From assembly GCA_002753665.1 (NCBI GenBank), contig PEAP01000005.1:10159-74158 (forward strand): a DNA stretch of 64,000 nt, written 5' to 3'. Position numbers and translations under genes: made by a program. The notes beneath the pieces were generated by a model that saw nothing but the letters and a program-made list of their open reading frames with translations, was not told where the DNA came from and searched no databases. Each line of letters opens with the position of its first letter. Position 1 is the first letter of the stretch. Source of the stretch: Magnetococcales bacterium DC0425bin3. Its GTDB lineage: Bacteria; Pseudomonadota; Magnetococcia; Magnetococcales; DC0425bin3. Shown here in pieces: positions 19,741-64,000 of this stretch.

Positions 19741-19741
19741 G

Positions 19742-19829: not shown

Positions 19830-20492
19830 ATGCATATCGTCGATGGAGCCCTGTCCGGACCGGTGCTGGCCGCCGGCGGCGCCGTGACCCTGGCCGGAAC
19901 CGCCTGGGGCCTGCGGTCCATCGGGGAACGGGAGATTCCCCGGGTGGGCCTGTTGAGCGCCGCCTTCTTCATGGCCTCGCTGATCCATGTACCGGTGGGA
20001 CCGTCCAGTGTCCACCTGATCCTCAACGGTCTGATCGGCCTGGTGCTGGGCTGGCGGGCTTTTCCGGCCCTGCTGGTGGCCCTGCTGTTGCAGGCGGTGT
20101 TCTTCGGCTTCGGCGGGGTGGTGGTGCTGGGGGTGAACGTGGCCAACATCGCCCTGCCGGCGGTGCTGATCCACTTCCTGCTCCGGGACGCCCTGGGCCG
20201 TTTCCGGGGGCGCACGGCCGTGTTCGCCATGGGCCTGCTGGCCGGCGCCGGGTCCATCATGGGCACCACCCTGCTGGTGGCCGCCAGTCTGGCCGGCAGC
20301 GGCCAGGAATTCCTGCCCGCCGCCGAACTGGTGTTCTTCACCCACATCCCGGTGATGGTGGTGGAAGGCCTCCTGACCGGGGCGGCGCTGGTGCTGATCC
20401 GGCGGGTGCGGCCGGAGCTGCTGCATCGGGTCGCGGAGGCCGCGCCCCTGGCTGAGCCCGCCCCGGCCCTGGCCGCGGAGGGACGGTCATGA
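19830..20492 (+). CDS. cbiM: Cobalt/nickel ECF transporter substrate-capture component CbiM
   Basis: It has the MHIVDGAL N-terminus and a polytopic profile. The ATG is 23 nt after repeat copy g. Confidence 0.85.
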   Translation: MHIVDGALSGPVLAAGGAVTLAGTAWGLRSIGEREIPRVGLLSAAFFMASLIHVPVGPSSVHLILNGLIGLVLGWRAFPALLVALLLQAVFFGFGGVVVLGVNVANIALPAVLIHFLLRDALGRFRGRTAVFAMGLLAGAGSIMGTTLLVAASLAGSGQEFLPAAELVFFTHIPVMVVEGLLTGAALVLIRRVRPELLHRVAEAAPLAEPAPALAAEGRS

Positions 20493-21301
20493 GCCGCGTT
20501 CTTCTGGCGGTTCTGCTCCTGGGCCTGGCCTGGCCCGGTTCCGGGGCGGCCCACAACATCATCGCCGAGGTCTATGTGGAAGGCACCCTCATCGAGGGCC
20601 AGGTGGGCTTCAGCAACGGCAGCCCCGCCCCCGGAGCCGGGGTGACGGTCCGCGGCCCGGACGGGGACTCCCTGGGCCAGGTCCAGACCGATCCCGAAGG
20701 GGTCTTCCAGTTCCGGGCCACCCGGCGCGTGGCTCACCAGTTCGATGTGGATGCCGGGGCCGGGCATGTGATCACCCTGCGGGTGGCCGCCGAGGACCTG
20801 CCCGAGCATTTGGATCAGGGCCCCCCCGCGCCGGCCGGCGCCACCGACCTGGGCGGCCCACGGCCACCCCATCCGGCAACCGGAGCAGTCACCCCGGTGG
20901 CGGTCACTTCGATGGATGGGGGAGGCTTCCCTCCACCCTCACCCGATGAAAGTCGTTCCGCGACTTTCAAGGTAACACCGGGGGAATCCACGACCCCGGT
21001 GGTGGCCCCGGAGGATCCCATGCCCCCCGAGGCCGAAATGGCCGGGGAAACGGCGTCCGCACCCCCGCCGGTGGCCGCTGCGCCGGCTCCGGTCGGCACG
21101 GCCCTGGACGAACAGTGCCTGAGCGAATTGGTGGAAAAGGCCGTGGCCCGCCAGGTGAAGCCCCTGCGCCAGCGGCTCCAGGCCCTGGAGACCGCGGTGC
21201 GCTTCCAGGACGTGCTGGGCGGGCTGGGCTACATCCTGGGGCTGACCGGCCTGGGGCTGTGGCTGACGGTGCGCCGCAAGGGCGGAGGCGACGCGCCATG
21301 A
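20489..21301 (+). CDS. Cbi/Nik transporter accessory protein (CbiN/NikL-like position): signal peptide, beta-rich domain, C-terminal TM
   Basis: 270 aa, overlapping cbiM by 4 nt and cbiQ by 4 nt. It has an N-terminal signal peptide and a C-terminal TM (LGGLGYILGLTGLGLWLTV). A repeat copy is read through in frame (SMDGGGFPPPSPDESRSATFKV). Confidence 0.55.
   Translation: MSRVLLAVLLLGLAWPGSGAAHNIIAEVYVEGTLIEGQVGFSNGSPAPGAGVTVRGPDGDSLGQVQTDPEGVFQFRATRRVAHQFDVDAGAGHVITLRVAAEDLPEHLDQGPPAPAGATDLGGPRPPHPATGAVTPVAVTSMDGGGFPPPSPDESRSATFKVTPGESTTPVVAPEDPMPPEAEMAGETASAPPPVAAAPAPVGTALDEQCLSELVEKAVARQVKPLRQRLQALETAVRFQDVLGGLGYILGLTGLGLWLTVRRKGGGDAP
20908..20975 (+). repeat. BPR copy h (complete, inside the cbi accessory ORF, in frame)
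   Basis: TTCGATGGATGGGGGAGGCTTCCCTCCACCCTCACCCGATGAAAGTCGTTCCGCGACTTTCAAGGTAA. Confidence 0.9.
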
Positions 21302-24961: not shown

Positions 24962-25028
24962 GCAGGGATGGGGGAAGCCTCTCCCTCCACCCTCGGACCA
25001 TGAAAGCCGCTCCGCGACTTTCATGGTC
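24962..25028 (+). repeat. BPR copy i (complete)
   Basis: GCAGGGATGGGGGAAGCCTCTCCCTCCACCCTCGGACCATGAAAGCCGCTCCGCGACTTTCATGGTC, between the HNH gene and the CI-like repressor gene. Confidence 0.85.
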
Positions 25029-27007: not shown

Positions 27008-27075
27008 TTGCCGTGGAAGCCGAAAAGCGGCTTTCATCGGTGGAGGGTGGAGGGAGGCCTCCCCCATCCATCTGA
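27008..27075 (-). repeat. BPR copy j (complete)
   Basis: TTGCCGTGGAAGCCGAAAAGCGGCTTTCATCGGTGGAGGGTGGAGGGAGGCCTCCCCCATCCATCTG, upstream of the Hpt gene. Confidence 0.9.
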
Positions 27076-27169
27076 AATTGGCCAGACTGGTGTGGACGTT
27101 GGGAAGAGGGGGGACTGTGGACAGGTTTTGTTTCGCCATGGGTCGTACTGCCGATCTGGGAGGGGGAGC

Positions 27170-27521: not shown

Positions 27522-29267
27522 GTGAAAATCCTGATCGCCGACGACTCCCAGGACGACCGACTCCTCCTCGAAACCATCCTGAACAAGGCCGGGTTTCGCG
27601 ATCTGGTATTCGCCGACTCGGGACCGGCGGCCCGGGCGATTCTGGAATCCGCCGTCGCCATCCCGCCGGTGGGCCTGGTGCTGATGGACGTGGACATGCC
27701 CGGGGGCAACGGCCTGGAGACCCTGGTCCTGCTCAAGGGCGCCGACCGCTTTCGCCACCTGCCGGTGATCATGGTGACCGGTCAGGCCGATGTGCAAGAC
27801 GTGGTCCGCGCCTTCGAACGGGGCGCGGTGGACTACATCACCAAACCCTTCAACCGGGTGGAGCTGCTGGCCCGGGTGAAGTCGGTCATCGCCCTGGAAG
27901 AGGCCAACCAGAAAGTCCGGCACAGCGAAAAACGCCTGCGGGATCTCACCTCTGCCTTGGGCGAGGGCCTGGCCAGTCTGGATGCCGCGGGCCGGTTGGC
28001 GTTCCTCAACCCGGCGGGGGAACATCTGCTGGGCCGCAGCGAGGCGGAGCTGTTGGGACGGGAGTTTCACCAGACGGTGCATCCCGACGGTCGCGGTTGT
28101 CCCATCGCAGCCATCGGAGCCGCCGAGACGGACGCCGGCTGTCCCCTGGAAGGGGCGGGGTTGCACCCCGGACAGGTCCGGGTGGGGGAGACCCGATTGG
28201 TCGACGCGGGGGGGGCGGATTTTCCCGCTTCGTATTCCCTGGTCGCCCTGGTGGAGGAACGCCTGGTGCGCGGCGCGGTGGTGGCCTTCCGGGACATCAC
28301 CGCCCTCAAGCGCGACGAGGAACGCCTGCGTTTGGCCGCCAGCATCGTCCGCAACAGCCAGGAAGGCGTGATGATCGTCGATCCCGGCACCATGTGCATC
28401 GTGGACATCAATCCCGCCTTCACCTTCATCACCGGTTATCCCCGGGAGGAGGCCCTGGGCCGCAAGCCCAGTCTGTTGCATTCCGGCCGCCAGGAGGCCG
28501 AGTTCTACCGCGTCCTGTGGGCCCAACTGGAGCGCACCGGCCGCTGGCAGGGGGAAATCTGGAACCGCCGGCGCGACGGGGAGTTGTTTCCCGAATGGTT
28601 GAGCATCACCGCCCTGCGGGATCCCCAGGGTCGCACCACCCATTATGTGGGGCTGTTCACCGACATCACCACCCGCAAGCGCATGGAGGAACGCCTGCAG
28701 CATCAGGCCCACCATGATGTTCTCACCGGTCTGCCCAACCGCATCCTGATGACCGACCGTCTGGGGCGGGCCCTGGCCCAGGCCCGGCGGGACAAGCGGC
28801 AGGTGGGACTGCTCTATGTGGACCTGGATGGCTTCAAGCCCATCAACGACACCCATGGCCACGGGGCCGGGGACGCGGTATTGCGGGAGGTGGCCAACCA
28901 TCTGGGCCGGCTGATCCGCGCCAGCGATACCGCCGCCCGGGTGGGCGGCGACGAGTTCGTCATCATCCTGGGCGGGGTGCAGGGGGAGGCCGACGTGACG
29001 GCGGTGGCGGACAAGGTCCTGGCCGCCCTGTCCCGCACCTTCTGGGTGGATGGCCGGGCCTGCGTGGTGGGGGCCAGCATCGGCATCGCCCTGTTCCCCC
29101 GGGATGCCGAGACCGGGGAAGAGCTGTTGGGCCGAGGCGACACGGCCATGTATCAGGCCAAGCGCGAGGGGCGCAACCGCTACTGCATCTGGCAGCGAAC
29201 CGCCGATCCGGCGGCCTTGTCGGCCGATGAGCGACAAATGGCATTGGGTTATGATGACGGTTTGTGA
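27522..29267 (+). CDS. Response regulator receiver + PAS domains + GGDEF diguanylate cyclase
   Basis: GTG 27522 (VKILIADDSQDD) follows a GAGGGAG RBS. It has a REC domain (LMDVDMPGGNG), two PAS-like segments and a GGDEF core (RVGGDEFVII). Confidence 0.85.
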   Translation: MKILIADDSQDDRLLLETILNKAGFRDLVFADSGPAARAILESAVAIPPVGLVLMDVDMPGGNGLETLVLLKGADRFRHLPVIMVTGQADVQDVVRAFERGAVDYITKPFNRVELLARVKSVIALEEANQKVRHSEKRLRDLTSALGEGLASLDAAGRLAFLNPAGEHLLGRSEAELLGREFHQTVHPDGRGCPIAAIGAAETDAGCPLEGAGLHPGQVRVGETRLVDAGGADFPASYSLVALVEERLVRGAVVAFRDITALKRDEERLRLAASIVRNSQEGVMIVDPGTMCIVDINPAFTFITGYPREEALGRKPSLLHSGRQEAEFYRVLWAQLERTGRWQGEIWNRRRDGELFPEWLSITALRDPQGRTTHYVGLFTDITTRKRMEERLQHQAHHDVLTGLPNRILMTDRLGRALAQARRDKRQVGLLYVDLDGFKPINDTHGHGAGDAVLREVANHLGRLIRASDTAARVGGDEFVIILGGVQGEADVTAVADKVLAALSRTFWVDGRACVVGASIGIALFPRDAETGEELLGRGDTAMYQAKREGRNRYCIWQRTADPAALSADERQMALGYDDGL

Positions 29268-31025: not shown

Positions 31026-31077
31026 CTTCCACCGCCCACCCTCCCACCGATGAAAGCCGCTTTTCGGCTTCCACGGC
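31026..31077 (+). repeat. BPR copy k (degenerate module 1 + hairpin)
   Basis: CTTCCACCGCCCACCCTCCCACCGATGAAAGCCGCTTTTCGGCTTCCACGGCG, 20 nt after the dtd stop. Confidence 0.7.
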
Positions 31078-31232: not shown

Positions 31233-31303
31233 TTACCGCTGAAAGTCGCTCCGCGACTTTCAGCGGTGGAGGGTGGAGGGAGGCCTCCCCCATCCATCTA
31301 AAG
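31233..31303 (-). repeat. BPR copy l (complete)
   Basis: TTACCGCTGAAAGTCGCTCCGCGACTTTCAGCGGTGGAGGGTGGAGGGAGGCCTCCCCCATCCATCTAAAG, in inverted orientation relative to copy k. Confidence 0.9.
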
Positions 31304-31337
31304 TCAGCCACCCTCTGCTCAGCACAAGGAAGGAGCC

Positions 31338-33096: not shown

Positions 33097-33242
33097 GGGG
33101 CACCTCTCTGGAAGGCCGATTCCGTCCATACGGAAACCGGATCCGTATCGTGGAATCTGGAGTCAGCATAGCGATCCCCCGCGGACCGCGCAAGGGCATT
33201 TTTTTGCGGCGCGGAAAAATACGCTGGCGCCGTGGGGTGGGG

Positions 33243-33605
33243 CTACAGCAGTTTGACCAGGGCGGCCACCACGGCCACGCCGGTCACCAGCATGCCGCCC
33301 AGGCGCAGGGTCAGGGAGTGGGTCAGGCGCAGTTCGAGTTCCTTCATGTCGCGGCGCAGGTTGGCTTCCATGCTGGTCATGTCGCGGCGCAGGTTGGCAT
33401 CGATGGCGGCAATGTCCCGTTTCAGGTTGGCCTCGATCATGGCCATATCCCGTTTCAGGTCCGCCACGTCTTTTTTGGTGGCCAGGCGTTCCTCCACCAG
33501 GGCGACCAGGGCTTCGGCCTGGACTTCGGCCTGCTGCTCGGAGAAGCCGGCGGTTTTCAGTTTCTTGGCGTAGGCCAGGGTGTCGAAGGCGATGGCGTGG
33601 TCCAT
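33243..33605 (-). CDS. DUF1640-like tail-anchored coiled-coil protein, paralog with 3 hendecad repeats
   Basis: 120 aa. It has the MDHAIAFDTLAYAKKLKTAGFSEQQAEVQAEAL start, three 11-aa units (IEANLKRDIAA/IDANLRRDMTS/MEANLRRDMKE) and a C-terminal TM (LGGMLVTGVAVVAALVKLL). Confidence 0.75.
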   Translation of the reverse strand: MDHAIAFDTLAYAKKLKTAGFSEQQAEVQAEALVALVEERLATKKDVADLKRDMAMIEANLKRDIAAIDANLRRDMTSMEANLRRDMKELELRLTHSLTLRLGGMLVTGVAVVAALVKLL

Positions 33606-33627
33606 GATCGGTTCTCCCGTGGCGCGG

Positions 33628-34056
33628 CTACAGCAGTTTGACCAGGGCGGCCACCACGGCCACGCCGGTCACCAGCATGCCGCCCAGGCGCAGGGTCAGG
33701 GAGTGGGTCAGGCGCAGTTCGAGCTCCTTCATGTCGCGTTTCAGGTTGGTTTCCATGGCGGCCATGTCGCGTTTCAGGTTGGTTTCCATGGCGGCCATGT
33801 CGCGGCGCAGGTTGGCTTCCATACTGGTCATGTCGCGGCGCAGGTTGGCATCGATGGTGGCCATATCCTGCCGCAAGTTGGCCTCGATCATGGCCAGATC
33901 CCGCTTCAGATCCGCCACGTCCTTCTTGGTGGCCAGACGTTCCTCCACCAGGGCGACCAGGGCTTCGGCCTGGACTTCGGCCTGCTGCTCGGAGAAGCCG
34001 GCGATTTTCAGCTTCTTGGCGTAGGCCAGGGTGTCGAAGGCGATGGCGTGGTCCAT
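33628..34056 (-). CDS. DUF1640-like tail-anchored coiled-coil protein, paralog with 5 hendecad repeats
   Basis: 142 aa. Its termini are near-identical to the neighbours and it has five NL(K/R)(R/Q)DM units. The 22-nt spacer upstream is identical to that of the next gene. Confidence 0.75.
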   Translation of the reverse strand: MDHAIAFDTLAYAKKLKIAGFSEQQAEVQAEALVALVEERLATKKDVADLKRDLAMIEANLRQDMATIDANLRRDMTSMEANLRRDMAAMETNLKRDMAAMETNLKRDMKELELRLTHSLTLRLGGMLVTGVAVVAALVKLL

Positions 34057-34078
34057 GATCGGTTCTCCCGTGGCGCGG

Positions 34079-34474
34079 CTACAGCAGTTTGACCAGGGCG
34101 GCCACCACGGCCACGCCGGTCACCAGCATGCCGCCCAGGCGCAGGGTCAGGGAGTGGGTCAGGCGCAGTTCGAGTTCCTTCATGTCGCGGCGCAGGTTGG
34201 TTTCCATGGCGGCCATGTCGCGGCGCAGGTTGGCTTCCATGCTGGTCATGTCGCGGCGCAGGTTGGCATCGATGGTGGCAATGTCCCGTTTCAGACTGGC
34301 CTCGATCATGGCCATATCCCGTTTCAGGTCCGCCACGTCTTTTTTGGTGGCCAAGCGATCTTCCACCAGGGCGACCAGGGCTTCGGCCTGGACTTCGGCC
34401 TGCTGCTCGGAGAAGCCGGCGATTTTCAGTTTTTTGGCGTAGGCCAGGGTGTCGAAGGCGATGGCGTGGTCCAT
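34079..34474 (-). CDS. DUF1640-like tail-anchored coiled-coil protein, paralog with 4 hendecad repeats
   Basis: 131 aa. It is the first gene of the tandem trio on the minus strand and has four hendecad units. Confidence 0.75.
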   Translation of the reverse strand: MDHAIAFDTLAYAKKLKIAGFSEQQAEVQAEALVALVEDRLATKKDVADLKRDMAMIEASLKRDIATIDANLRRDMTSMEANLRRDMAAMETNLRRDMKELELRLTHSLTLRLGGMLVTGVAVVAALVKLL

Positions 34475-34544
34475 GACTCTATCCTCCCGATTCTGGATCG
34501 TACCATATCCGGGCCGACCGGCACAGAAAGAGTGGATGGCTTTT

Positions 34545-38290: not shown

Positions 38291-38672
38291 GGTCGAACTC
38301 CCATTCGAGGCCGAAGCGGGCGCTGTGATCCGCCGGTTCGGCAATTTTTTCCTGGCCATTCTTTCCGGGCGGTCGGCCGGCAGGCCGGCCCGGAGCGGGC
38401 AGGGGGGTGACTGTTCCCCCTCAGAGGCGGAAATCAGCAATAACCATGCCTGGGGGAGAATTCTCTGGCGCCACGCTGGTTCATATGGTCTGGGAGAAAA
38501 TGGACGCCAAGAATTTCGACAGTGACGAGCAGCACGCTGACAGCTCAATTTCGTTGCACGCTGTCCAGAAACTTTCTGCCGTTGCTCCGATGGATGCGCA
38601 CTATTTTCCGTCCCATATCACCTGGTGGCCCCCCTTGGGGTTGGAAAGAGCAGGCCTGTTTTCTGTTGTGAC

Positions 38673-38742
38673 TTTGATGGATGGGGGAGGCCTCCCTCCA
38701 CCCTCCACCGATGGAAGCCGGTTCCCGGCTTCCACACGGTAA
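38673..38742 (+). repeat. BPR copy m (complete)
   Basis: TTTGATGGATGGGGGAGGCCTCCCTCCACCCTCCACCGATGGAAGCCGGTTCCCGGCTTCCACACGGTAA, ending 3 nt before ATG 38746. Confidence 0.9.
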
Positions 38743-39743: not shown

Positions 39744-39798
39744 TTGCCGCAGCGGCCGAAAAGCGGCCCGCAGCGGTGGAGGGAGGCTTCCCCCATCC
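39744..39798 (-). repeat. BPR copy n (variant hairpin, shortened module 1)
   Basis: TTGCCGCAGCGGCCGAAAAGCGGCCCGCAGCGGTGGAGGGAGGCTTCCCCCATCC. It fills the gap between two convergent genes. Confidence 0.75.
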
Positions 39799-40956: not shown

Positions 40957-41015
40957 TTGGCTGGGGCATGCCTCGGACCGGGAGCGACGGTTTCGGAACG
41001 AATTTTGCTGACTTG

Positions 41016-41083
41016 TAGATGGATGGGGGAGGCCTTCCGCCACCCTCCACCGGTGAAAGTGGCGGAGTGAGTCTCACCGGTAA
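41016..41083 (+). repeat. BPR copy o2 (complete, variant hairpin)
   Basis: TAGATGGATGGGGGAGGCCTTCCGCCACCCTCCACCGGTGAAAGTGGCGGAGTGAGTCTCACCGGTAA, ending 17 nt before ATG 41101. Confidence 0.85.
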
Positions 41084-42845: not shown

Positions 42846-42847
42846 CT

Positions 42848-42905
42848 TTTTGATGGATGGGGGGGGCTCCCTCCACCCTCGTACCGTGAAAACTGCAACT
42901 TCGAA
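42848..42905 (+). repeat. BPR copy p (module 1 + degenerate module 2)
   Basis: TTTGATGGATGGGGGGGGCTCCCTCCACCCTCGTACCGTGAAAACTGCAACTTCGAACC. It begins 3 nt after the AdoMetDC stop. Confidence 0.75.
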
Positions 42906-49412: not shown

Positions 49413-49644
49413 ATGAATCTCATCAAGTCAAAAAAAGCGCGTCGCCGACCACGGGGAGGTCTTCACCCCCGCGTGGATGGTTGAGGCCATGCCTGCGCCG
49501 CCAGTTGGGTGATACCGAAGGGGGGCCTTCACCCCCGCGTGGATGGTTGAGGCCATGCTTGATCTGGTCAAGGGCGAAACCGAACGCATTGATTCCCGCT
49601 TTTTGGAGCCAGCCTGCGGCAGCGAGAAGAAAATTCTTATCTAA
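49413..49644 (+). pseudogene. Decayed 5' stub of an N6-adenine DNA methyltransferase (type II/IIG-like)
   Basis: It encodes ..VADHGEVFTPAWMVEAM.. and again ..FTPAWMVEAMLDLVKGETERIDSRFLEPACGS. The body is out of frame with the ATG at 49413, and removing one A from the A7 run would restore the frame. A 32-bp stretch is exactly duplicated (49461-49492 = 49527-49558). Homology stops inside SAM motif I (EPACGS) where direct repeat copy 2 begins. Confidence 0.7.
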
Positions 49645-49665: not shown

Positions 49666-50808
49666 ATGAGTCATTCAACAGCCTTGATGATCAGATATCT
49701 GCGCCGTGCCTTTGACGCAGCACGCCACGACCATGGTCAGAAGGTCGCCTATGCCTATATTGGAGAAATCATCCTCGCCAACCTGCTTGATGGGTTGGAG
49801 CAGGAACTCTTCGACAAGACATTCGCCAATGGCTTGATCCAGTGCTGGATGCGCAATTATGACCGGCAAAGGCAGGCGATCGGGAAGGCGGACGTCCCAT
49901 CCGGGACCCAATCCCTCTTCAAAGACCCGACGCCCTCTGAAATGCTCGCCGACAGTTTCGACCTGGTGTGCGGCATGCCCTCTCCCGACTGTCCTGAAGC
50001 CCCCCACAGGCAAAGGGGGTTCCGAATTCGGTGTACTCGTCCGCTTGATAATGCAACGGTGAAAGGGGATTATGTCAGCATCACCGGTGCCAAGGATTTC
50101 GTGGATGAAATAATGGATCCCGAAGAGAAGCGCAAGAAAATTGGCGAAAACTGGATCCCCACAATACTCAGTTCCGGGAATATCGACTGGGCAGGCTGGA
50201 GGCCACCCAAGAAAATCCCGGTGAAGCTCAAGAATGCCCCGACAGGAAACCCGACTTCCACCATCGGTAATCCAGCGAGAGTCTTGTGGATCACTCCAGA
50301 AGCAGGACTCACCTTGATGGATGGGGGAGGCCTCCCTCCACCCTCCACCGATGGAAGTCGCGGAGCGACTTCCACTCCCGCCCATCTGCTCCGGGATCGA
50401 TTGGGTCTCGTGCATCATTTCGAGAAACCGCTTCTCGCCATGACGCTGCCCGCCGCCACGGTACACGCCATGACTCACGGCCGTCCGACCTGCGCGGATG
50501 CCGGCAGCCAGCGCCGTCACATGGCCAGGGGAGCCGGCAAGTCCGCTCCCACCGACCCCTGGGGCAGAACGGCGGACCTGTCACGCATCACCCCCACAGC
50601 GGTGGATTTCGACGGATTGCCGGAACGAATCGTGGAACCGATCCCGGTCGGCGAACTCCCGGAGATCGAGGTCCAGCCACTGGGCTTCTGTGGCCCGGAA
50701 CGGGGTAACTCGCCGCAGGATGACAACCGGGTTTTCGCCGACCATTTATGCCGCCGGCATGGAGGGGTCGACGGCGTGGTGGATACCTTGGAAAGGGTAC
50801 TGGCGTGA
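49666..50808 (+). CDS. Hypothetical protein A of a three-gene operon (repeat copy read through in frame)
   Basis: 380 aa from ATG 49666. The AT-richer N-terminal ~215 aa and the GC-richer C-terminal ~140 aa are joined by repeat copy q (TLMDGGGLPPPSTDGSRGATST). No domain was recognised. Confidence 0.55.
   Translation: MSHSTALMIRYLRRAFDAARHDHGQKVAYAYIGEIILANLLDGLEQELFDKTFANGLIQCWMRNYDRQRQAIGKADVPSGTQSLFKDPTPSEMLADSFDLVCGMPSPDCPEAPHRQRGFRIRCTRPLDNATVKGDYVSITGAKDFVDEIMDPEEKRKKIGENWIPTILSSGNIDWAGWRPPKKIPVKLKNAPTGNPTSTIGNPARVLWITPEAGLTLMDGGGLPPPSTDGSRGATSTPAHLLRDRLGLVHHFEKPLLAMTLPAATVHAMTHGRPTCADAGSQRRHMARGAGKSAPTDPWGRTADLSRITPTAVDFDGLPERIVEPIPVGELPEIEVQPLGFCGPERGNSPQDDNRVFADHLCRRHGGVDGVVDTLERVLA
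50314..50375 (+). repeat. BPR copy q (complete, inside ORF A, in frame)
   Basis: TTGATGGATGGGGGAGGCCTCCCTCCACCCTCCACCGATGGAAGTCGCGGAGCGACTTCCAC. Confidence 0.9.
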
Positions 50809-51941
50809 GCAGTGATTCCCAAGAGAGCAGGGAACCATGGGAAGAGTCCGAAGAACATTGGGGGTTCGATACCGTGGACGCCGGGAACCGGCTTCCATCG
50901 GCGGAGGGTGGAGGGAGGCTTCCCCCATCCATCACAGTCAGTCCGGTCGTCCCCGAACGCCGACGGGCCGACTCCAATATTCCCGGCTTCGAACGATGGC
51001 TCCGTGATGGCCTGGAGGGGCACCTCCTGGACCATCTCACTCTGGAAGAAGCCTTTCCCGAACTGGCGCCCATCCTGAGCCGCAGCCACTCACTGTCCGC
51101 CACTCTGCAGGAACTCATCGATCGCCAGGACAGCGTCAGACGCAGCGATTTCAAACAGGCTCTGGCCAACCTGTTGGCATCCCTGGCCCCCCAGCCACGG
51201 AATATCCCCCTGTTCGAAACGATCCTCCAGATCGCGGTGGCGGTGAAAGCCCATGAGATCTTCCATCCCCTGGTGTTCCGTATTCGGGAAGGGTTCTGGG
51301 ACCGATGGACCACGGCGCAAGGCAATTCCCTGTTGACCGAGGCGATGCTGGCCGTCTCGCAATTGGCCGCGCCGCGCCCCGATGCCTTGGACTGCCTCAA
51401 CGGGTTGATCGATTCCGTCCCTTTCCAGCAGAAGCCTTACCCGCACACACTGATCGCCCTGGAATCCCTGTGTCGCTGTGAACCCAAGCGTTTTCCCCAA
51501 CACTTCGAACGGCTGCGGACCATGTTGGAGATCCAAATCCGCCAGTTCCAGCCTGCAGCCGAGCATCTGCGCTGGACCGCGGCCGCCCTGATCACCCTGG
51601 TGGGACCCGCTCGCTTTCTCGAAGATTTGATCAGCATCGTGGGGGGGGGAACTTTTCGCGGGGGCGATGACCAGGTTTTCTGGGTATTGAAAGCGGTCTT
51701 CTCTCCCCTGGACGATCTGCCCCCTCTTCTTCTCTGCCAGGAAGCGGATACCGAGGGCGAGTGGAAATTTTATCTTTCCGGCAACCCGACCGCGCTTGAT
51801 TTTTCAATTTCGAGTCACCTGGGTTGGAGTCGTTTGCTTGAGCTGTTCATACAACAGGGTTGGGTGCCCCAGATGGTGCTGCCGGAGGGAGCAAATGAGC
51901 AGGTCAACGACTTTTTTCGCATGAAGCCGATCGCCGCATGA
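50805..51941 (+). CDS. Hypothetical protein B of a three-gene operon (all-helical, repeat copy near the N-terminus)
   Basis: 378 aa from GTG 50805 (GTGA overlap with gene A). Repeat copy r is translated (DAGNRLPSAEGGGRLPPSIT). The remainder looks like helical repeats. No motif was recognised. Confidence 0.55.
   Translation: MSSDSQESREPWEESEEHWGFDTVDAGNRLPSAEGGGRLPPSITVSPVVPERRRADSNIPGFERWLRDGLEGHLLDHLTLEEAFPELAPILSRSHSLSATLQELIDRQDSVRRSDFKQALANLLASLAPQPRNIPLFETILQIAVAVKAHEIFHPLVFRIREGFWDRWTTAQGNSLLTEAMLAVSQLAAPRPDALDCLNGLIDSVPFQQKPYPHTLIALESLCRCEPKRFPQHFERLRTMLEIQIRQFQPAAEHLRWTAAALITLVGPARFLEDLISIVGGGTFRGGDDQVFWVLKAVFSPLDDLPPLLLCQEADTEGEWKFYLSGNPTALDFSISSHLGWSRLLELFIQQGWVPQMVLPEGANEQVNDFFRMKPIAA
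50870..50934 (-). repeat. BPR copy r (complete, inside ORF B, in frame)
   Basis: TACCGTGGACGCCGGGAACCGGCTTCCATCGGCGGAGGGTGGAGGGAGGCTTCCCCCATCCATCA. Confidence 0.9.
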
Positions 51942-51954
51942 ACATGCATATGCA

Positions 51955-54393
51955 ATGGGTAATGCCATGAATCCATCGGATCCCCCCTCTCGACTGGCTG
52001 ATCTGTTCGAGGCCGCGGTCCGACAGCGGCGCCTGATGGATGGCTGGATCGACGATCAGAAATTGACGGAAGAGGGCGGTCGGGTCTGGTATGCGGTCGA
52101 TGCCGATGTCGTGGCTCTTTTCACCAAGCCGACTGAGATCGCCGTTGGGAGGATCGACCGGGAAGGTTACGCGGTGGTGTTTCCTGGTGACGAAGCCGAT
52201 GAAGAGAACAAGGAGGCGACCATCGCCCTTGGCCATGCCCTGGCGCGCCATATATTCTCAATGTCGCGTGAGGTTCCATTGTTGGCACTGCCCCCGACCC
52301 GGACGGAGCTGCGCCGGATATATACCGCTGTTGTCCAGGAAGCCGAGGAAGAGAAATACAACGCCCAGAAGGATCTGGATGACCTCTTGAACATCCAGGC
52401 CGCACTCGGCAGGATTGTCGACCAGCAGCAGTGCAGACAATGGCTGGAAAGGAATGTTCCTGCCATCAGTCGCCTCTTGTTCGGATTGGGTACCACGGGA
52501 CAGCTATTGCGATTATCCCACCTGTTCCGCGAGAAGAGGTTGGCGAACATGAGCCAACTGGTCTCGACGCCCGGGCTGCCCGTCTCTCTCGCCAACGCTC
52601 TGCGGGGGCCAGTTGCCTCTGCCGATGTCATTGAGTTTTCCAAAGTCAAGGAAAAATGGCTCCACGGATTGGTCGATCAATACTGCGAACGGACAAAAAC
52701 AAAACCGAAGGATATGCCTCAACGGGTCTTGAATAACTTCATTAATGATGCCGAGCTGCTTGCCTGGATCCAGTGGATCAACCACCATCTGGCAGAAACC
52801 AGACAGCGCATGGTCCTGGTGACAGGTTCAGTCAACCTGTTTCACCTGACCCGTGGGACCGATCCCCATGGGATCTTTTCCGGGACGGGCAGGAGTTTTG
52901 CCGATCTTTACCTGCGTCACCCGAAGGCATTCCTGGCCGAGCCTTCGGTCCTGTTTCCCTCCCCTGATGCCGGGCGCCAGGGCGACGGCGACGCCCCGGT
53001 TCCCAAAAAGAAACGATTTTTCGATTGGCTGGAGACCTTGCTCTCCTATTCGAAGGGCTACAGGGAAGAGAGCAGCCGGACGCAGCTGGAAAGGAATGCC
53101 CAGGAGGCGTTGACAACCCAACCGGACCTGTTGCGGGATTTCGAAAAGGATTGGGCGGCCTATCGTTTTTCCGTTCTGCCCACCCACCAGATCAGCGACC
53201 CGGCGCTGAATGGCAATCAGGGCGTTCGCCTGCCAATCGATACCAGGCTTTTCGATCTGTTCAAGGCTTCCCAGGCAATCGATCAACTGCGGGATGGAAT
53301 TCGGTCACTGGTGAATAACCAGCTGGAACTGAACTGGAATGCCTGTTTCAATATCGCCACCTTGGCCGGTTATGGCCTGCTGTCCCAGAAGGGGAAAGAC
53401 GAGGAGATCCCCACCCGCAATCCACCCCCCATCTACTTCTCCAGCCTGCCCGAGGCCTCCCGGTTCATTACCGGACTCCCATTCTTCAAACGGTTGATCC
53501 AAGCCCGGGAGGAGAGACAGCCTCTGGACTCTGGAGATTTTGAGAAGGCCCTGGCCAGGCTCCGGGGCGAAGATCCTTCCGGTTACACATTCAGCTTGGG
53601 GTTTGCCCAACTGTATGCCATGGAAGGCGATTGGATCGTCTCCAACATTCAAGCCAAACGGGCCTTTCACATCGCCGAAAACAGTTCCCAGGAACTGATC
53701 TCCGGACGGGAAGCCGCCTATATGCGGGCGGTGGCCCGGCGTCATTCCGCGAAAGGCATGGAAGATCTGCTGCGGGTGCGGAACCACCTGGCAACGGCCC
53801 GGGAGCGGCTGGAGCGGGACCTTCGCCGTGCCAACCCCACCACCACCACGGACCTGCGCTTTCAGGCCGAAGAGTTGGCCGTGTCTGTCACGGCCCATCT
53901 CTTTCGGATGTTCTGCGGTCACAGTATTCCCTCCGAGCTGGAGGTACCACCGTCCCTCGTGGAAACCGAGAGCCTTCTGGAATCCTTGATCAATGCAATG
54001 AAGGAGAAGACATATGCCAGCGAGAACAACCTGGTGAAATTGCAGGTCGAACAGCATCTCCTGGTCAATCTGCTCATGGTCGCCCTGCTGCGCCACAGGC
54101 ATGATCCCGAATCCATCCATGGAAGTGATTATCTGCCCTGGTACCAGAAACTGAACCAGAATATCGATGCGAGCGGCTCCATCATTCGGACCACATTCTT
54201 TGTCAGTGTCATCCGCAGCACGGTTCGGTGGTTGGTCGGTGAGGATCGGAAAGATCGTAAGGAAGCGATGGGAGAACTGAATCGTCTGCTGACCGACATG
54301 GCCATCGACGATCGCACCCGGTCGATCTTTCCCTACGACAAGGCGCGCTATCGTTATTTGCGGGATCTGGTCAACGGGAAACCGGACCGGTGA
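51955..54393 (+). CDS. Hypothetical large protein C of a three-gene operon
   Basis: 812 aa, starting 13 nt after gene B. The N-terminal segments VWYAVDADVVALF and FINDAELLAWIQWI..RMVLVTGS are faintly PIN-like. The C-terminal half is helical and TPR-like. No confident family was assigned. Confidence 0.65.
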   Translation: MGNAMNPSDPPSRLADLFEAAVRQRRLMDGWIDDQKLTEEGGRVWYAVDADVVALFTKPTEIAVGRIDREGYAVVFPGDEADEENKEATIALGHALARHIFSMSREVPLLALPPTRTELRRIYTAVVQEAEEEKYNAQKDLDDLLNIQAALGRIVDQQQCRQWLERNVPAISRLLFGLGTTGQLLRLSHLFREKRLANMSQLVSTPGLPVSLANALRGPVASADVIEFSKVKEKWLHGLVDQYCERTKTKPKDMPQRVLNNFINDAELLAWIQWINHHLAETRQRMVLVTGSVNLFHLTRGTDPHGIFSGTGRSFADLYLRHPKAFLAEPSVLFPSPDAGRQGDGDAPVPKKKRFFDWLETLLSYSKGYREESSRTQLERNAQEALTTQPDLLRDFEKDWAAYRFSVLPTHQISDPALNGNQGVRLPIDTRLFDLFKASQAIDQLRDGIRSLVNNQLELNWNACFNIATLAGYGLLSQKGKDEEIPTRNPPPIYFSSLPEASRFITGLPFFKRLIQAREERQPLDSGDFEKALARLRGEDPSGYTFSLGFAQLYAMEGDWIVSNIQAKRAFHIAENSSQELISGREAAYMRAVARRHSAKGMEDLLRVRNHLATARERLERDLRRANPTTTTDLRFQAEELAVSVTAHLFRMFCGHSIPSELEVPPSLVETESLLESLINAMKEKTYASENNLVKLQVEQHLLVNLLMVALLRHRHDPESIHGSDYLPWYQKLNQNIDASGSIIRTTFFVSVIRSTVRWLVGEDRKDRKEAMGELNRLLTDMAIDDRTRSIFPYDKARYRYLRDLVNGKPDR

Positions 54394-54458: not shown

Positions 54459-57224
54459 ATGGAAGGCTTTGAAAATCATGTTGTTGTCATAAGGAAACCT
54501 TCTTTGAATACCCAACCCCCCCGCGCCATCCGTCTGCAGGACTACACTCCGTATCCGTACCTGGTGCAGCGGATCCGGCTCACCGTCCATCTGGACGAGA
54601 CCCCGGTGCGGGTGGAGAGCCGTCTGGAGATGACGGCCAACCCGGCCATCGCCGGTGGTCCCCATCCCCTGTGGCTGGACGGGGCGGAGCTGGATCTGGC
54701 CGCCCTGGCCCTGGATGATCACTCCATCGATCCGGGTCGTTACGACCGCGGCCGGGAAGGCCTCGAACTGCCGGCCCCGCCGCCGGGGCCGTTCGTGGTG
54801 ACGGTCAGCACCCGGCTGCAGCCGGAGAACAACACCAGCCTGGAGGGGCTCTATCGGGTCAAGGGTCTGTTCTGCACCCAGTGCGAGGCCCAGGGGTTCC
54901 GCAAGATCACCCTGTATCCCGACCGGCCCGACGTGATGGCGCGCTTCACGGTGGAGATCATCGCCCGGCGGGACGCCTGCCCGGTGTTGTTGTCCAACGG
55001 CAATCGCGTCGCCCAGGGCGAACTGGACGGTGGGCGGCACTGGGCGCTGTGGGAGGATCCGTTTCCCAAGCCCAGCTACCTGTTCGCCCTGGTGGCCGGG
55101 GATCTGGCACGCCGCGACGGGGAGTTCATCACCCGCTCCGGCCGGCGGGTGGGATTGGAGTTCTACACCGAGGCGGCCAACGTCGAGCGCTGCGGCCATG
55201 CCCTCCAGTCCCTGCGGGAGGCCATGGCCTGGGACGAGCGACGCTTCGGGCGGGAATACGATCTGGACCTGTACATGGTGGTGGCCACCGACGATTTCAA
55301 CATGGGGGCCATGGAGAACAAGGGCCTCAATATCTTCAATACCCAGTATGTCCTGGCCCGGCCGGAGACCGCCACCGACGACGATTACGAAGGCATCCAG
55401 AGCGTCATCGCCCATGAATACTTCCATAACTGGACCGGCAACCGCATCACCTGCCGGGACTGGTTCCAGTTGAGCCTCAAGGAGGGGCTGACGGTCTTTC
55501 GGGATCAGGAATTCAGCGCCGATTTCATCGATCCCGGCGTGCAGCGGGTGCGGGACGTGCGGCTGCTGCAGACCCAACAATTCGTGGAGCTCGCAGGCCC
55601 CACCGCCCATCCGGTGCAGCCGGATTCCTACGTCGAGATCAACAATTTCTACACCACCACCGTCTACAACAAGGGGGCGGAGGTGGTGCGCATGCTGCAA
55701 ACCCTGCTGGGCCGGGATGGCTTCCGGGCCGGCATGGATCGTTATTTCGAACGCCACGACGGCCAGGCGGTCACGGTGGAGGAGTTCGTCCGGGCCATGG
55801 AGGACGCCAACGGGCGGGACTTCCGGCAGTTCCGCCGCTGGTACCGGCAGGCCGGCACGCCGGTGGTGCGGGCCAGCACCGCCTTCGACGCGGCCCGGGG
55901 GCAATTGACCCTCACCCTGCGCCAAAGCTGTCCGGCCACGCCGGGCCAGCCCACCAAGGAGCCGTTCCACATTCCGGTGGTCATGGGCCTGCTGGACGGC
56001 GCCAGCGGTGCGCCCCTGCCGCTGACTTCGATGGAGGGGGGAGGCCTCCCTCCCCCCTCCGCCGGTGAAAGTCGCGGAGCGACTTTCACGGTCATGTCTC
56101 CCGGGGATGCCCCGGCCGGCGCGGCCGTCCTGGAGCGGGTGCTGGAACTGCGGGAAGAACGTCAGGACTGGACCTTCACCGGTCTGCGCCAGGCGCCCCA
56201 GGTGTCGCTGTTGCGGCATTTTTCCGCCCCGGTGCGGCTGGTGTTCGAGGATGTGCGGGCCGATCCGGCTTTTCTGTGGGGGCATGATCCCGACCCGTAC
56301 AACCGGTGGGCCGCCGGTCAGGAGCTGCTCACCCGCCACATCTTCCGGCTGATGGCCGGGGAGTCCCTCGGGGAGGCGGTGGCGGCCGGCCTGGCGGCGG
56401 CGGCCGGTCGGGTATTGGCCGACGGGCGCCTGGAGCCGGCCATGAAGGCCCTGGCCCTGACCCTGCCGTTCGAAAAATGGCTGCTGGATCGCATGGCGCA
56501 GGCCGATCCGGCGGCGGTGCATCAGGCCCGGAACCGTATCCGCCGGCTGCTGGCCCAGGGGCTGGAACAGCGGCTGCTGGACACCCACGCCGCCCTGGTG
56601 GGCCTCGAGCCCTATCGCTATCACCCGGCCGCCGCCGGCCGCCGTACCCTGAAGAACCACTGCCTGGCCCAACTGGCGTTGCTGGAGCGGCCCGGGCATT
56701 GGAGCCTGGCCTGGGAGCAATTCCGGCACAGTGACAACATGACCGACCAGGCCGCGGCCCTCACCACCCTGGTCCACACCGGCGCTCCCCAGGCCGGAGA
56801 GGCCTTGAAGGACTTCCATCACCGCTGGCGCGAAACCCCGCTGGTGATCAACAAGTGGTTCACCATCCAGGCCACCAACCCCGGGGAGGATTGTTTCAAG
56901 CGGGTGGTGGAACTCACCGAACACGCGGATTTCACCGAACGCAATCCCAACCGGGTGCGGAGTCTCATCGGCGCCTTTTCCGCCGGCAATCCCCACCGCT
57001 TCCACGCTCCCAACGGCGAGGGCTACGAGTTCCTGGCCTATTGGGTGTTGCGGCTGGACAGCCTCAATCCCCAGATCGCCGCCCGCATGGTGGCCCCCCT
57101 GCTGCACTGGCGTCGCTTCGAACCCGTGCGCCAGGAACGCATGCGGTCCGTCCTGTCGGACATCGCCCAGCGCCCGACCCTGTCCCGGGATCTGCTGGAG
57201 ATGGTCGCCAAGGGGCTGGGGTGA
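54459..57224 (+). CDS. pepN: Aminopeptidase N (M1 family)
   Basis: It has GAMENKGLNIFN, HEYFHNWTGNRITCRDWFQLSLKEG and the C-terminal ERAP1-like region. The true start may be TTG 54504. It contains an in-frame 66-bp repeat copy at 56027-56092. Confidence 0.93.
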   Translation: MEGFENHVVVIRKPSLNTQPPRAIRLQDYTPYPYLVQRIRLTVHLDETPVRVESRLEMTANPAIAGGPHPLWLDGAELDLAALALDDHSIDPGRYDRGREGLELPAPPPGPFVVTVSTRLQPENNTSLEGLYRVKGLFCTQCEAQGFRKITLYPDRPDVMARFTVEIIARRDACPVLLSNGNRVAQGELDGGRHWALWEDPFPKPSYLFALVAGDLARRDGEFITRSGRRVGLEFYTEAANVERCGHALQSLREAMAWDERRFGREYDLDLYMVVATDDFNMGAMENKGLNIFNTQYVLARPETATDDDYEGIQSVIAHEYFHNWTGNRITCRDWFQLSLKEGLTVFRDQEFSADFIDPGVQRVRDVRLLQTQQFVELAGPTAHPVQPDSYVEINNFYTTTVYNKGAEVVRMLQTLLGRDGFRAGMDRYFERHDGQAVTVEEFVRAMEDANGRDFRQFRRWYRQAGTPVVRASTAFDAARGQLTLTLRQSCPATPGQPTKEPFHIPVVMGLLDGASGAPLPLTSMEGGGLPPPSAGESRGATFTVMSPGDAPAGAAVLERVLELREERQDWTFTGLRQAPQVSLLRHFSAPVRLVFEDVRADPAFLWGHDPDPYNRWAAGQELLTRHIFRLMAGESLGEAVAAGLAAAAGRVLADGRLEPAMKALALTLPFEKWLLDRMAQADPAAVHQARNRIRRLLAQGLEQRLLDTHAALVGLEPYRYHPAAAGRRTLKNHCLAQLALLERPGHWSLAWEQFRHSDNMTDQAAALTTLVHTGAPQAGEALKDFHHRWRETPLVINKWFTIQATNPGEDCFKRVVELTEHADFTERNPNRVRSLIGAFSAGNPHRFHAPNGEGYEFLAYWVLRLDSLNPQIAARMVAPLLHWRRFEPVRQERMRSVLSDIAQRPTLSRDLLEMVAKGLG
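56027..56092 (+). repeat. BPR copy s (complete, 66 bp, inside pepN, in frame)
   Basis: TTCGATGGAGGGGGGAGGCCTCCCTCCCCCCTCCGCCGGTGAAAGTCGCGGAGCGACTTTCACGGT, translated as SMEGGGLPPPSAGESRGATFTV. Confidence 0.9.
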
Positions 57225-61511: not shown

Positions 61512-64000
61512 TCAGCTGATGATATGCCGCACCCGGGGCAGGAAATCGTGGACCACCACCGGTTTGACGGCGAAGTCCACCGCCCCCATGCGGAAGGCCC
61601 GATCCCGGGTTTCGGTCTTCTCGTCCCCGGTGATGAGGATCACCGGAATATGTTCGGTTTCCGGGCGGCGTTTCAGTTCCCGGAGCAGTTGGAAACCGTC
61701 CATGGCCGGCATGGCGATGTCGGTGACCACCAGGTGGGGCAGGTGCATGTCCACCAGGGCCAGGGCCTCGGCACCGCTTTCGGCCTCCATGATCTCCACG
61801 TCCAGGGATTCCAGGAAGGCGCCGATCATCAGCCGGTCCATGGCGCCGTCGTCCACCAGCAGCACCCGGGGCCGCATGGGCGGCAGACGCACGGTGAAGG
61901 TGCTGCCGGCGCCCGGGGTGGACTCCACCGTCAGGCTGCCGCCATGGGCCTCGACGATGTCGAAGCTGAACGGCAGGCCGAAACCGGTGCCGGTCTCCCC
62001 CAGGGTGCCCGGGGTGGAGACCTTTTCCTCCACATGGAACAGCCGGGGAATCACCTCGTCCGGAATGCCCACCCCGTAATCCACCACCGCCAGGGCGGTG
62101 TCGTCGTCCGGCAGGCGCAGCAGTTGGATGCGGCCGCCCGGATGGCTGAACTTGACCGCGTTGGACATCAGGTTGAACAGCACCTCGCCCAGCAGGGTGG
62201 GATCGCCGTACAGACGGGTTTCCTCGGGGATCTGGTTGGTGATCTGCAGGCCCTTCTTGCGGCTGATGAAATCCAGGCGCTGGATCACTTCCTCGCTGAG
62301 GAAATGACCGTCGAAGAAGCTCTTCTCCAGGCGGATCTTGCCCGACTTGAGCCGGCCGATGTTGAGGATTTCCTCGATCATCAGGTTGAGGTTGCGCCCG
62401 GTGGCCAGCACGTCGCTCAGCAGGTCCCGCTGGGTGGGGGACAGGGGCGGGTCCTGATCGTCCCGCAGGAACTCCAGCAGGCTGACGATGGAGCTGATGG
62501 GCGCCCGCAGGTCGTGGGCCACCAGGGAGACGAACTTGTCCTTGAGCCGGCTGGCCTCCTCGGCGGATTCCTTGGCGCGGATCAGGGCGGCTTCGGTTTC
62601 CTTGCGTTTGGTGATGTTGCGGGCCGAGGCCAGCACCGTTTCCTGGTCGTCGCCGCCCGCCAGGCGCAGGTTCACCTCCACCGGAAAGCTGCTGCCGTCC
62701 TGTCGGCGGTGCAGGCCCTCCACCGACAGGGAGCCGGACTCCCGCAGACCCTGCACCAGGGCGTCCCAGTCCTGGGCGCCCCCCAGGGCCAGGGTCTGGA
62801 ACTGCCCGGCCCGCAGCCGGAACAGCTCCTCCCGCCGCATGCCCAGGCTGGTCCAGGCGGTGCCGTTGGCGTCCAGCACCCGGCCGTCGGCGGGATCCAG
62901 GACCAGGAAGGCATCCCCGGACTGGTCCATCAGGTCCCGGAATTTTTTCAGGTCCGCCTCGCGCTTGAGGCGTTCGCTGATGTCCCGATAGGCGCCGATG
63001 AGCTTCTTGCGGCCGCCGGAAACGAACGAGCCGGCGCTGATTTCCACCGGCACCACCGTGCCGTTCTTGTGGCGCAGATGGCAGAGGGGGATGTGATGGC
63101 CGGAACTCAGGTTCTCGGCGCAATCGGCCAGTTGCTTCAGCTCCGACTCCGGCCGGTCGGTGTAGCGGGTGACCTGCATCCGCAGCAGTTCGTGGCGCCG
63201 GTAGCCCAGCATCAGCTCCACCGCCGGATTGCAGTCCTCGATGGTCAGGGTTTCGGCGTCCAGCACCAGGATGCCATCGGTTTCGCCCTCGAACAGGCGG
63301 CGGTAGCGTTCCTCGCTTTCCCGCACGGCCCGCCCCGCCCGGCGCCGCACCGTGACATCGTGTCCCACCCCCAGCACCTCCACCACCATGCCCTGGTGGT
63401 TGCGGATGCCCTTCATGGTCCAGGACACCCACAGCCGGTCGCCGTTGCGGTTGATGATTTCGTATTCCCGGGGAATGGCGGATTCCGGCTGGATGATGAT
63501 CTCGCTCACCACCTGGGTCATCTCGCGGCCGTCCAGGCAGCGCTCCGGCATGATGGTGCCCACCACGCTGCGGCCCTGGATCTCCTCGGCCCGGTAGCCG
63601 AACAGCTCCCGGGCGAAGCGGTTGAAGAAGATCACCCGCCCCATGGTGTCCATGTGCAGGATGATGCTGTTGGCGTTTTCCACCAGCTCCCGGTACTGGT
63701 TTTCCCGCCGGGCCAGGGCGTCCAGGGTGCGTTTTTCGGCGGTGATGTCGATGAAGAAGCCCCGCAGGCCCACCGTGGTCCCGCCTTCGCGCACCAGCAC
63801 GCCCACGGTGCGGGTCCAGACCACCTCGCCGTTGGCGGTCACCAGGCGGCAGGCGAAGGAGAAGTCCAGCCCCTGGGCCAGATGTTCCCGGACCATCGCC
63901 CTCGCCCGGGGCCGATCCTCGGCCTGAATGCGGCCGGACAGCACCTCGAAGGTGGTCCAGCTGTCGGGCGGATAGCCGGTCCAGGGCTGGATGCCGGAGC
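61512..64000 (-). CDS. Hybrid sensor histidine kinase: multiple PAS + HisKA/HATPase + C-terminal receiver; 5' end outside window
   Basis: The H-box is VAHDLRAPISS and the ATP-lid is GTGFGLPFS. The REC domain is VLLVDDGAMDR..VVTDIAMPAMDG. The frame stays open upstream of the listed GTG (..TGYPPDSWTTFEVLSGRIQAEDRP, PAS-like) to the window edge. Confidence 0.88.
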   Translation of the reverse strand, partial: SGIQPWTGYPPDSWTTFEVLSGRIQAEDRPRARAMVREHLAQGLDFSFACRLVTANGEVVWTRTVGVLVREGGTTVGLRGFFIDITAEKRTLDALARRENQYRELVENANSIILHMDTMGRVIFFNRFARELFGYRAEEIQGRSVVGTIMPERCLDGREMTQVVSEIIIQPESAIPREYEIINRNGDRLWVSWTMKGIRNHQGMVVEVLGVGHDVTVRRRAGRAVRESEERYRRLFEGETDGILVLDAETLTIEDCNPAVELMLGYRRHELLRMQVTRYTDRPESELKQLADCAENLSSGHHIPLCHLRHKNGTVVPVEISAGSFVSGGRKKLIGAYRDISERLKREADLKKFRDLMDQSGDAFLVLDPADGRVLDANGTAWTSLGMRREELFRLRAGQFQTLALGGAQDWDALVQGLRESGSLSVEGLHRRQDGSSFPVEVNLRLAGGDDQETVLASARNITKRKETEAALIRAKESAEEASRLKDKFVSLVAHDLRAPISSIVSLLEFLRDDQDPPLSPTQRDLLSDVLATGRNLNLMIEEILNIGRLKSGKIRLEKSFFDGHFLSEEVIQRLDFISRKKGLQITNQIPEETRLYGDPTLLGEVLFNLMSNAVKFSHPGGRIQLLRLPDDDTALAVVDYGVGIPDEVIPRLFHVEEKVSTPGTLGETGTGFGLPFSFDIVEAHGGSLTVESTPGAGSTFTVRLPPMRPRVLLVDDGAMDRLMIGAFLESLDVEIMEAESGAEALALVDMHLPHLVVTDIAMPAMDGFQLLRELKRRPETEHIPVILITGDEKTETRDRAFRMGAVDFAVKPVVVHDFLPRVRHIIS

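Follow-up and report, generated by a model that had tools for sequence, protein, structure and literature searches.

We analysed a stretch of 64,000 nucleotides (nt), hereafter the window, from the metagenome-assembled genome (MAG) of Magnetococcales bacterium DC0425bin3 (GCA_002753665.1, contig PEAP01000005.1), in which the aminopeptidase N gene, pepN, carries one copy of a short dispersed repeat. We conclude, with a probability of about 85%, that the repeat belongs to a lineage-specific family and that this copy is tolerated in frame in a loop of the enzyme (PepN) as a near-neutral passenger. The initial annotation of the window had read the copy as an extra loop peptide, after the pattern of the Rickettsia palindromic elements (RPE). 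That reading is supported: the segment is found in 0 of 119 orthologs, the fold is kept, a second assembly carries the same insert, and in-frame copies recur in three other genes (copies h, q and r).

pepN (54459-57224, + strand) is a single open reading frame (ORF) of 921 codons, as initially described, and is one gene in the NCBI annotation. Its product, a member of the M1 family, scores 1151 bits against the equivalog model TIGR02414 (pepN_proteo; cutoff 718 bits), in a match that the insert splits into two stretches. The M1 motifs had been noted as intact, and we found that the GAMEN exopeptidase motif (G283-A284-M285-E286-N287) and the HEXXH-(18)-E zinc site (H319, E320, H323 and E342) are invariant columns in an alignment of 120 sequences. 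The GC contents of the first, second and third codon positions are 0.70/0.46/0.85, a normal coding signature at the third position (GC3). The window PepN is identical to P0148 and differs by two residues from P0001, which comes from a sister assembly (GCA_015233965.1, JADFWZ010000004.1). A patch of differences between the two assemblies at 55577-55595 lies within pepN, and there the window encodes Q373 and L378 and the sister assembly H373 and D378. Asp378 is conserved in at least 90% of orthologs, so L378 of the window allele is an unusual substitution in the catalytic domain.

The copy in pepN, copy s, was matched by the family profile (model positions 2-74) at 56022-56094 on the + strand (nhmmer, 70.5 bits, E=4e-21). 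Within this match, 56028-56093 (+ strand) makes up the 22 additional codons, SMEGGGLPPPSAGESRGATFTV, which encode PepN residues 524-545. The copy had first been placed at 56027-56092, with the right length but one nucleotide out of codon phase. The pepN letters that flank the insert are ...CCGCTGAC on one side and ATGTCTCCC... on the other, and GATFTVMSPGDAPAGAAVLER is an example of a PepN peptide that spans a junction. In alignments of 24 and 120 sequences, the 22-residue segment was absent from all 119 orthologs, which are at most 59-61% identical. The stretch between P521 and R560 typically has 13 residues in orthologs (range 2-26) and has 38 in the window PepN. Compared with E. coli PepN, query residue 523 corresponds to E. 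coli residue 500 and query residue 558 to about residue 506, giving 34 residues against 5, in agreement with the earlier statement that the E. coli loop is roughly 30 residues shorter. When the 22 residues are taken out, the resulting junction PLPLT/MSPGDAPAGAAVLERVLELR matches PLPLA/LPGEDPAAAPRERVLELR of the nearest Magnetococcales orthologs. A homologous segment of the same length in orthologs from unrelated lineages had been named as evidence that would speak against an insertion, and no such segment is present in the 119. These alignments suggest that the pepN segment is a derived insertion, absent from all orthologs compared.

The exact extent of the insertion is less sharply defined. PepN exceeds its nearest orthologs by 24-26 residues, and 73 nt are covered by the profile match, which leaves 66, 69, 72 or 75 nt as possible lengths of the true insertion. 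In addition, the CTGACT at the left end of copy s encodes the Leu-Thr of PLPLT, so the insert boundary cannot be fixed without an empty site. Ortholog alignment, from which insertion-free alleles and exact boundaries had been expected, thus delivered 119 sequences without the segment, none of them from a close relative, and did not yield the boundaries.

The insert maps to a part of PepN that varies in length. Its site is inside an all-beta segment at about residues 469-596, and query residue 518 aligns with residue 702 of PfA-M1, within the middle domain III of that enzyme (residues 650-746; PMC3244404). By alignment, the insert belongs to a loop of variable length in domain III, the middle beta-sandwich domain, apart from the catalytic domain with the GAMEN and HEXXH-E motifs. 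An AlphaFold2 model built with 120 sequences (pLDDT 91.8, pTM 0.92) has the four-domain PepN fold, with a Foldseek TM score of 0.94 to E. coli PepN (2dq6/2hpo). Confidence drops only at the insert, where the 10-residue blocks of 521-560 average pLDDT 68/59/80/74 and values fall below 50 only at 528-530. This agrees with the earlier reading of the insert as a loop segment. DSSP assigned short strands to residues 522-524 and 542-545 of the model, which suggests a beta-hairpin stalk bearing a Gly/Pro loop. Judging from the model, the enzyme most likely still folds with an excursion of 22-24 residues on this short stalk.

The repeat is a structured element that occurs many times in the window. A 28-nt core has 8 sites at three or fewer mismatches, with 0 expected in shuffled sequence, and the family was also recovered by a repeat-finding run. 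We defined copies by an iterated nhmmer profile and obtained 19 distinct full or partial copies, which are those previously lettered a-s. Thirteen full copies, including s, were aligned and gave a consensus of about 75 nt: cTGACTT-yc-GATGGATGGGGGAGGCCTCCCTCCACCCTCCACC-GATGAAAGyCGs-nnnn-sCGrCTTyCAC-GGTAAC. The element joins two dissimilar hairpin modules, both GC-rich, whose direct order is fixed. In copy s, hairpin 1 (56033-56060, + strand) is GGAGGGGGGAGG-CCTC-CCTCCCCCCTCC, with a perfect stem of 12 bp, and hairpin 2 (56062-56091, + strand) has an 11-bp stem, GTGAAAGTCGC/GCGACTTTCAC, a GGA loop and a CC/GG extension. Hairpin 1 is nearly invariant, and the T.C and G.A mismatches of its consensus are kept in 11 of the 13 copies; copy s is the only one in which both are repaired. 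Hairpin 2 contains compensatory changes (5 pairs and 15 cells altered on both sides), and its covariation score was reached by 1 of 500 shuffles. Copy s folds much more stably than shuffled sequence, with z = -6.9 as DNA and with z = -5.7 (-51.7 kcal/mol) as RNA. The modules also occur singly, with hairpin 2 only in copies a, b and k and hairpin 1 only in c, n and p.

Copies of the element also stand back to back, and tandem copies are arranged head to tail and abut as GGTAAC/TTTCGATGG. Back-to-back junctions of the form ...CACGGTAAC/TTTCGATGG... and tandem modules with hairpin 1 only were seen at L005 12995-13135 and at L009 6545-6628 and 11744-11861. The only inverted repeats of the element are its two internal hairpins. 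Terminal inverted repeats are absent, with 7 of 14 ungapped identities between the left end and the reverse complement of the right end. The best flanking direct repeat averages 2.6 nt, compared with 2.1 nt at mismatched flanks, for boundaries that are not fixed by any empty site. Of 17 full copies, about 13 have a semi-conserved T-R-A-C motif directly 5' of them, and TAAC forms the end of the element itself. The resemblance of the left flank to the element's own end hints at target-specific insertion beside existing copies.

The family appears to be confined to this lineage. An exact 27-mer of the core had 0 matches in the GTDB species representatives and in JGI metagenome contigs, a 22-mer of the core also had 0 matches, and no copy was present in 11 kb of a related Magnetococcales MAG. 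The element matched no Rfam family at gathering score; a resemblance to the two-hairpin RNA FinP was sub-threshold (26.6 against 45 bits) and was set aside. In the literature searched, we found no description of palindromic repeats in Magnetococcales. In sequence not selected for the element, which is the window together with 9.4 kb upstream, there are 22 copies in about 73 kb, or about one per 3 kb, and 4 of these 22 are verified in-frame cases.

The sister assembly allowed us to examine each copy a second time. We rebuilt it across the whole window from four loci (L005, L006, L007 and L001) and found it to be about 99.9% identical, with all 19 copies present and collinear. The region of copies q, r and s is 99.96% identical between the assemblies and free of gaps, and the single repeat-associated difference is 1 nt in the C-run of copy e. 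Since the same insert is found in a second, near-identical assembly, it is not an assembly artefact.

According to the annotators' gene calls, 14 of the 19 window copies are intergenic, copy d overlaps a gene end, and h, q, r and s lie in frame within genes. The segment is missing from the homologs of each of the four host proteins. A nickel-transport accessory protein (PF27549; ORF 20489-21301) contains copy h (20904-20975, + strand), read in frame F0 as VTSMDGGGFPPPSPDESRSATFKVT, in a variable linker rich in Pro and Ala; its homologs without the segment are 190-231 amino acids (aa) long. Copy q (50308-50375, + strand) is also read in F0 (LTLMDGGGLPPPSTDGSRGATST), in a 380-aa hypothetical protein (49666-50808) that is conserved among Magnetococcales and has 29 residues where four homologs have 15. 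Copy r (50869-50941, - strand) lies in the adjacent hypothetical protein of 378 aa (50805-51941, + strand), with 41 residues against 18 in orthologs and a conserved N-terminus upstream of the copy. This host reads the opposite strand of the element (DTVDAGNRLPSAEGGGRLPPSITVS; frame R1, AEGGGRLPPSI). The initial annotation had assigned near-identical MDGGG peptides to h, q and r, which holds for h and q and fails for r.

Three further in-frame cases lie outside the window in the same MAG. We built a peptide profile from frame F0 (..SMDGGGLPPPSTDESR..), which is open in nearly all copies, in contrast to F1 and F2, which mostly have stops. The profile had 7 matches in 1.84 billion representative proteins, including the q host, the h host, P0150 and P0153. 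The element peptide is present in 5 of the 7, and the four with traced contigs belong to this lineage (the fifth is P0149). P0150 is a repetitive, coiled-coil-like protein of 3761 aa with three tandem partial copies in frame, and in P0153 the element forms a C-terminal extension. Scanning the loci of these two proteins revealed 17 further copies. One of these gives the third case, a hemerythrin-domain protein (L008 28487-29002, - strand) in which a full copy, read in R0 (YRESHRATFIGGGWREASPIHQSS), sits in the loop that joins helices 1 and 2, so that a third reading frame is in use. The earlier claim that one open frame is used again and again therefore stands for h, q and s, and does not extend to r or to the hemerythrin-like gene. 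We also considered frame preference as a sign of selection on the peptide and rejected it: after the cases found with the F0 profile are dropped, F0 accounts for 3 of 5 with about four frames open, which is not significant. As an observation on P0150 itself, its gene (L008 10001-21286, on contig 1 of GCA_015233965.1) is about 8 kb from MamK-like (MreB_Mbl) and MamF/MmsF-like genes, and thus near a magnetosome gene region.

Taken together, these results suggest the following course of events. A small (about 70-75 nt), non-coding, lineage-specific repeat family would have spread through the Magnetococcales genome, mainly between genes, and one copy would have landed in pepN, in the length-variable loop of domain III. 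The inserted length is a multiple of three, the frame that is read is stop-free, and the peptide is flexible and rich in Gly, Pro and Ser; length and frame together keep pepN open. Insertions in genes would mostly disrupt the frame or the fold and vanish, leaving in-frame insertions in loops and linkers. We infer that survivorship of this kind accounts for the in-frame pattern, and that the PepN insert is no adaptation and has come through selection as a tolerated and probably near-neutral passenger.

We weighed three other explanations of the insert. One is that pepN was recently inactivated, with the insertion, perhaps together with D378L, having ended folding or activity and the ORF remaining open for lack of time. 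Copy s scores as one of the best-preserved copies, which would fit a young insertion, and Leu378 replaces a residue that is Asp in at least 90% of orthologs. We nevertheless regard inactivation as improbable, because the ORF, the catalytic motifs and the coding GC3 signature are all intact, the model folds confidently except at the insert, and orthologs with loops of 2-26 residues show that the site tolerates insertions and deletions. Moreover, all four intragenic copies of the window keep the frame, which is unexpected for recent hits that escaped selection, and the sister assembly carries the insert together with the consensus Asp378. An artefact of assembly or binning, with the repeat wrongly spliced into pepN, is hardly credible. 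The sequence does come from a MAG, and clustered patches and a collapsed tandem array do set the assemblies apart, but the element is shorter (about 70 nt) than a sequencing read, pepN is contiguous and in frame on both sides, and the assemblies agree base for base across the insert.

The remaining alternative is that the insert was recruited for a function, either with the GGGxPPPS loop as an interaction or modification motif or with the hairpins regulating mRNA stability or translation. PepN, the nickel-transport protein, the q host, P0150 and P0153 all use F0 for the element, and copy s, with both stem mismatches repaired, has the most stable hairpin. Neither observation makes recruitment more than very improbable in our judgement, since the F0 bias loses significance once ascertainment is removed and the copies in the r host and the hemerythrin-like gene are read in other frames. 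In addition, 14 of 19 copies are intergenic, the host proteins are functionally unrelated, and the peptide is confined to this lineage among the traced profile matches.

Several points also weigh against a tolerated insertion of a mobile repeat. No insertion-free allele from a close relative was found: the insert is present in both near-identical assemblies, and the next closest ortholog shares 59% identity. We consequently read the insertion event from a comparison with distant sequences, which leaves about 6 nt of uncertainty at either boundary. Copy q is 68 nt long yet adds only 14 residues, so at least some events were not clean insertions. No transposase of any kind, including Y1/RAYT (PF01797), TnpA and TnpB, is present among the Pfam-annotated called genes in about 122 kb of the genome, and with neither terminal inverted repeats nor target duplications found, only the dispersed pattern of the copies argues for mobility. 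As for the enzyme, the window PepN carries Leu378 where more than 90% of orthologs have Asp, its expression and activity are presumed, and an mRNA structure of -52 kcal/mol at copy s could hinder translation. With these reservations, we still favour the near-neutral passenger as the account of the insert. The best explanation of the element is a lineage-specific, REP/MITE-like selfish repeat, and we infer from its dispersal that it is or was mobile.

The remaining copies were all located with the nhmmer profile, and those in this group are intergenic unless stated otherwise. Hairpin 2 alone makes up copies a (4606-4633, - strand), b (8364-8393, -) and k (31036-31076, +). Hairpin 1 alone makes up c (9509-9549, -), between ribF and ileS, and p (42847-42896, +), with n (39775-39798, -) being a hairpin-1 fragment. 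Copies f (16116-16189, -), i (24964-25028, +), j (27008-27076, -), l (31235-31306, -), m (38669-38735, +) and o (41008-41082, +) lie between genes elsewhere in the window. Copy d (13203-13270, +) overlaps the 3' end of a 127-aa hypothetical gene (12865-13248, +) and copy e (13333-13399, +) follows 130 nt from d. The 127-aa gene has no Pfam match and a weak coding signal and ends with a TGA inside copy d; it may represent a false ORF, or the repeat may have reshaped the 3' end of a real gene. Copy g (19737-19806, +) lies between the stop of a DUF4198 gene (19740) and the start of cbiM. It is in frame with the region upstream of cbiM and was examined as an in-frame case, but was rejected as intergenic.

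Some neighbouring features were recorded as well. A cobalamin riboswitch (RF00174, 79.4 bits; 18567-18809, + strand) precedes an operon of DUF4198, cbiM, PF27549, cbiQ and ABC ATPase genes, in which copy g stands between genes 1 and 2 and copy h within gene 3. The genes hosting q and r belong to a cluster of three (49666-54393; 380, 378 and 785 aa) with no Pfam match and a GC3 of about 0.68, below that of the surroundings, and two of the three contain repeat copies. Other Magnetococcales MAGs (L002, L003 and L004) keep its gene order as well as a 4-nt overlap between genes. Just upstream of the q-host gene is a 42-nt direct repeat (49454-49495 and 49520-49561; 93% identity, 66 nt apart) that is unrelated to the hairpin family.

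Nearly all differences between the two assemblies fall in five short patches, each with 4-17 clustered changes, and are not scattered single-nucleotide polymorphisms (3127-3141, 16386-16414, 28243-28265, 55577-55595 and 63326-63340). We tested whether the patches were small inversions, and they were not; they may be consensus effects of a strain mixture or local gene conversion. A tandem array with units of about 418-451 nt lies over small phasin/CCDC90-like genes (33236-34513), and the window array has two units (870 nt) more than that of GCA_015233965.1. We considered this 870-nt difference as presence or absence of the repeat and rejected it, as it consists of two extra units of the unrelated tandem array of about 435 nt; it is either true copy-number variation or assembly collapse.

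The closest likeness to a known system is to RPE (Ogata et al. 2000, 2002). According to the summaries in PMC10969869 and PMC3184786, RPE are palindromes found between genes and in unrelated housekeeping genes. As these summaries describe RPE, both systems are dispersed palindromes in which genic copies keep the frame and add a conserved peptide compatible with the fold. The element is about 70-75 nt long, half the size of RPE (about 105-150 nt) as given there, is GC-rich, and has two distinct modules that are also found singly. Its host is a free-living Magnetococcales lineage and not an obligate intracellular alphaproteobacterium. We therefore call the element RPE-like in behaviour and do not class it as an RPE.

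Other families share some of these properties. Repetitive extragenic palindromic (REP) sequences and the related BIME and REPIN, moved by RAYT transposases (PMC3733652, PMC3116915, PMC2817692), are likewise short, GC-rich, imperfect palindromes of high copy number that are mostly extragenic. The mosaic modules and back-to-back copies of the element recall BIMEs, and stems are kept by compensatory change in both. In contrast to REP and REPIN, the consensus lacks the hairpin-foot tags (GTAG, CTAC, CGTC and GACG are all missing), and we found neither an inverted REP pair (REPIN) nor alternating BIME orientation, the modules being direct and the tandems head to tail. There is also no Y1/RAYT gene in the roughly 122 kb covered, and the genic share is unusually large for REP, at 4 of 19 copies. 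With the tag and pairing tests negative, the element is not a REP or REPIN, and the absence of terminal inverted repeats means that it is not a classical MITE (miniature inverted-repeat transposable element). BRE of Bordetella, enterobacterial ERIC/RU-type repeats and pneumococcal BOX/RUP/SPRITE are fused in frame with genes, either in the interior or at one end, 5' or 3' (PMC3184786). The C-terminal extension of P0153 and copy d at a gene 3' end are counterparts of such end fusions. The element is unrelated to these families in sequence, size and architecture and is without the terminal inverted repeats or terminator-like function that several of them have.

The IS200/IS605-derived PATE lack terminal inverted repeats and target duplication, neither of which was found for our element, and likewise have hairpins near both ends. 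The T-R-A-C motif 5' of the element, a candidate target motif, recalls the way in which PATE insert 3' of a fixed tetranucleotide. The ends of IS608-type elements have a single hairpin type in common, whereas the two hairpins of our element are unrelated in sequence; the element is also much shorter than PATE and has no TnpA or TnpB in the same 122 kb. We treat the T-R-A-C/TAAC pattern as only a lead towards an IS200/IS605-like mode of insertion. Tentatively, and at odds well short of even, the genome may hold about a thousand copies of an undescribed two-hairpin element outside the known mobilisation classes, a substantial share of them in frame in proteins, at a density that may exceed that of RPE in Rickettsia. 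If true, nature would here be testing loop insertion and the birth of peptides on a large scale, with a new transposition mechanism behind it.

These results also carry a warning for the annotation of MAGs, where such repeats yield lineage-specific insertions and deletions, break up hidden Markov model matches, lengthen proteins at the C-terminus and give rise to spurious small ORFs. PepN offers a clean test case, being a structurally characterised enzyme whose forms with and without the 22 residues can be compared. When first described, protein-coding palindromes were regarded as a peculiarity of Rickettsia and tied to reductive intracellular evolution. Here the same outcome is seen at high density in a free-living magnetotactic lineage, and the case supports small palindromic repeats as a general route to loop segments in bacterial proteins.

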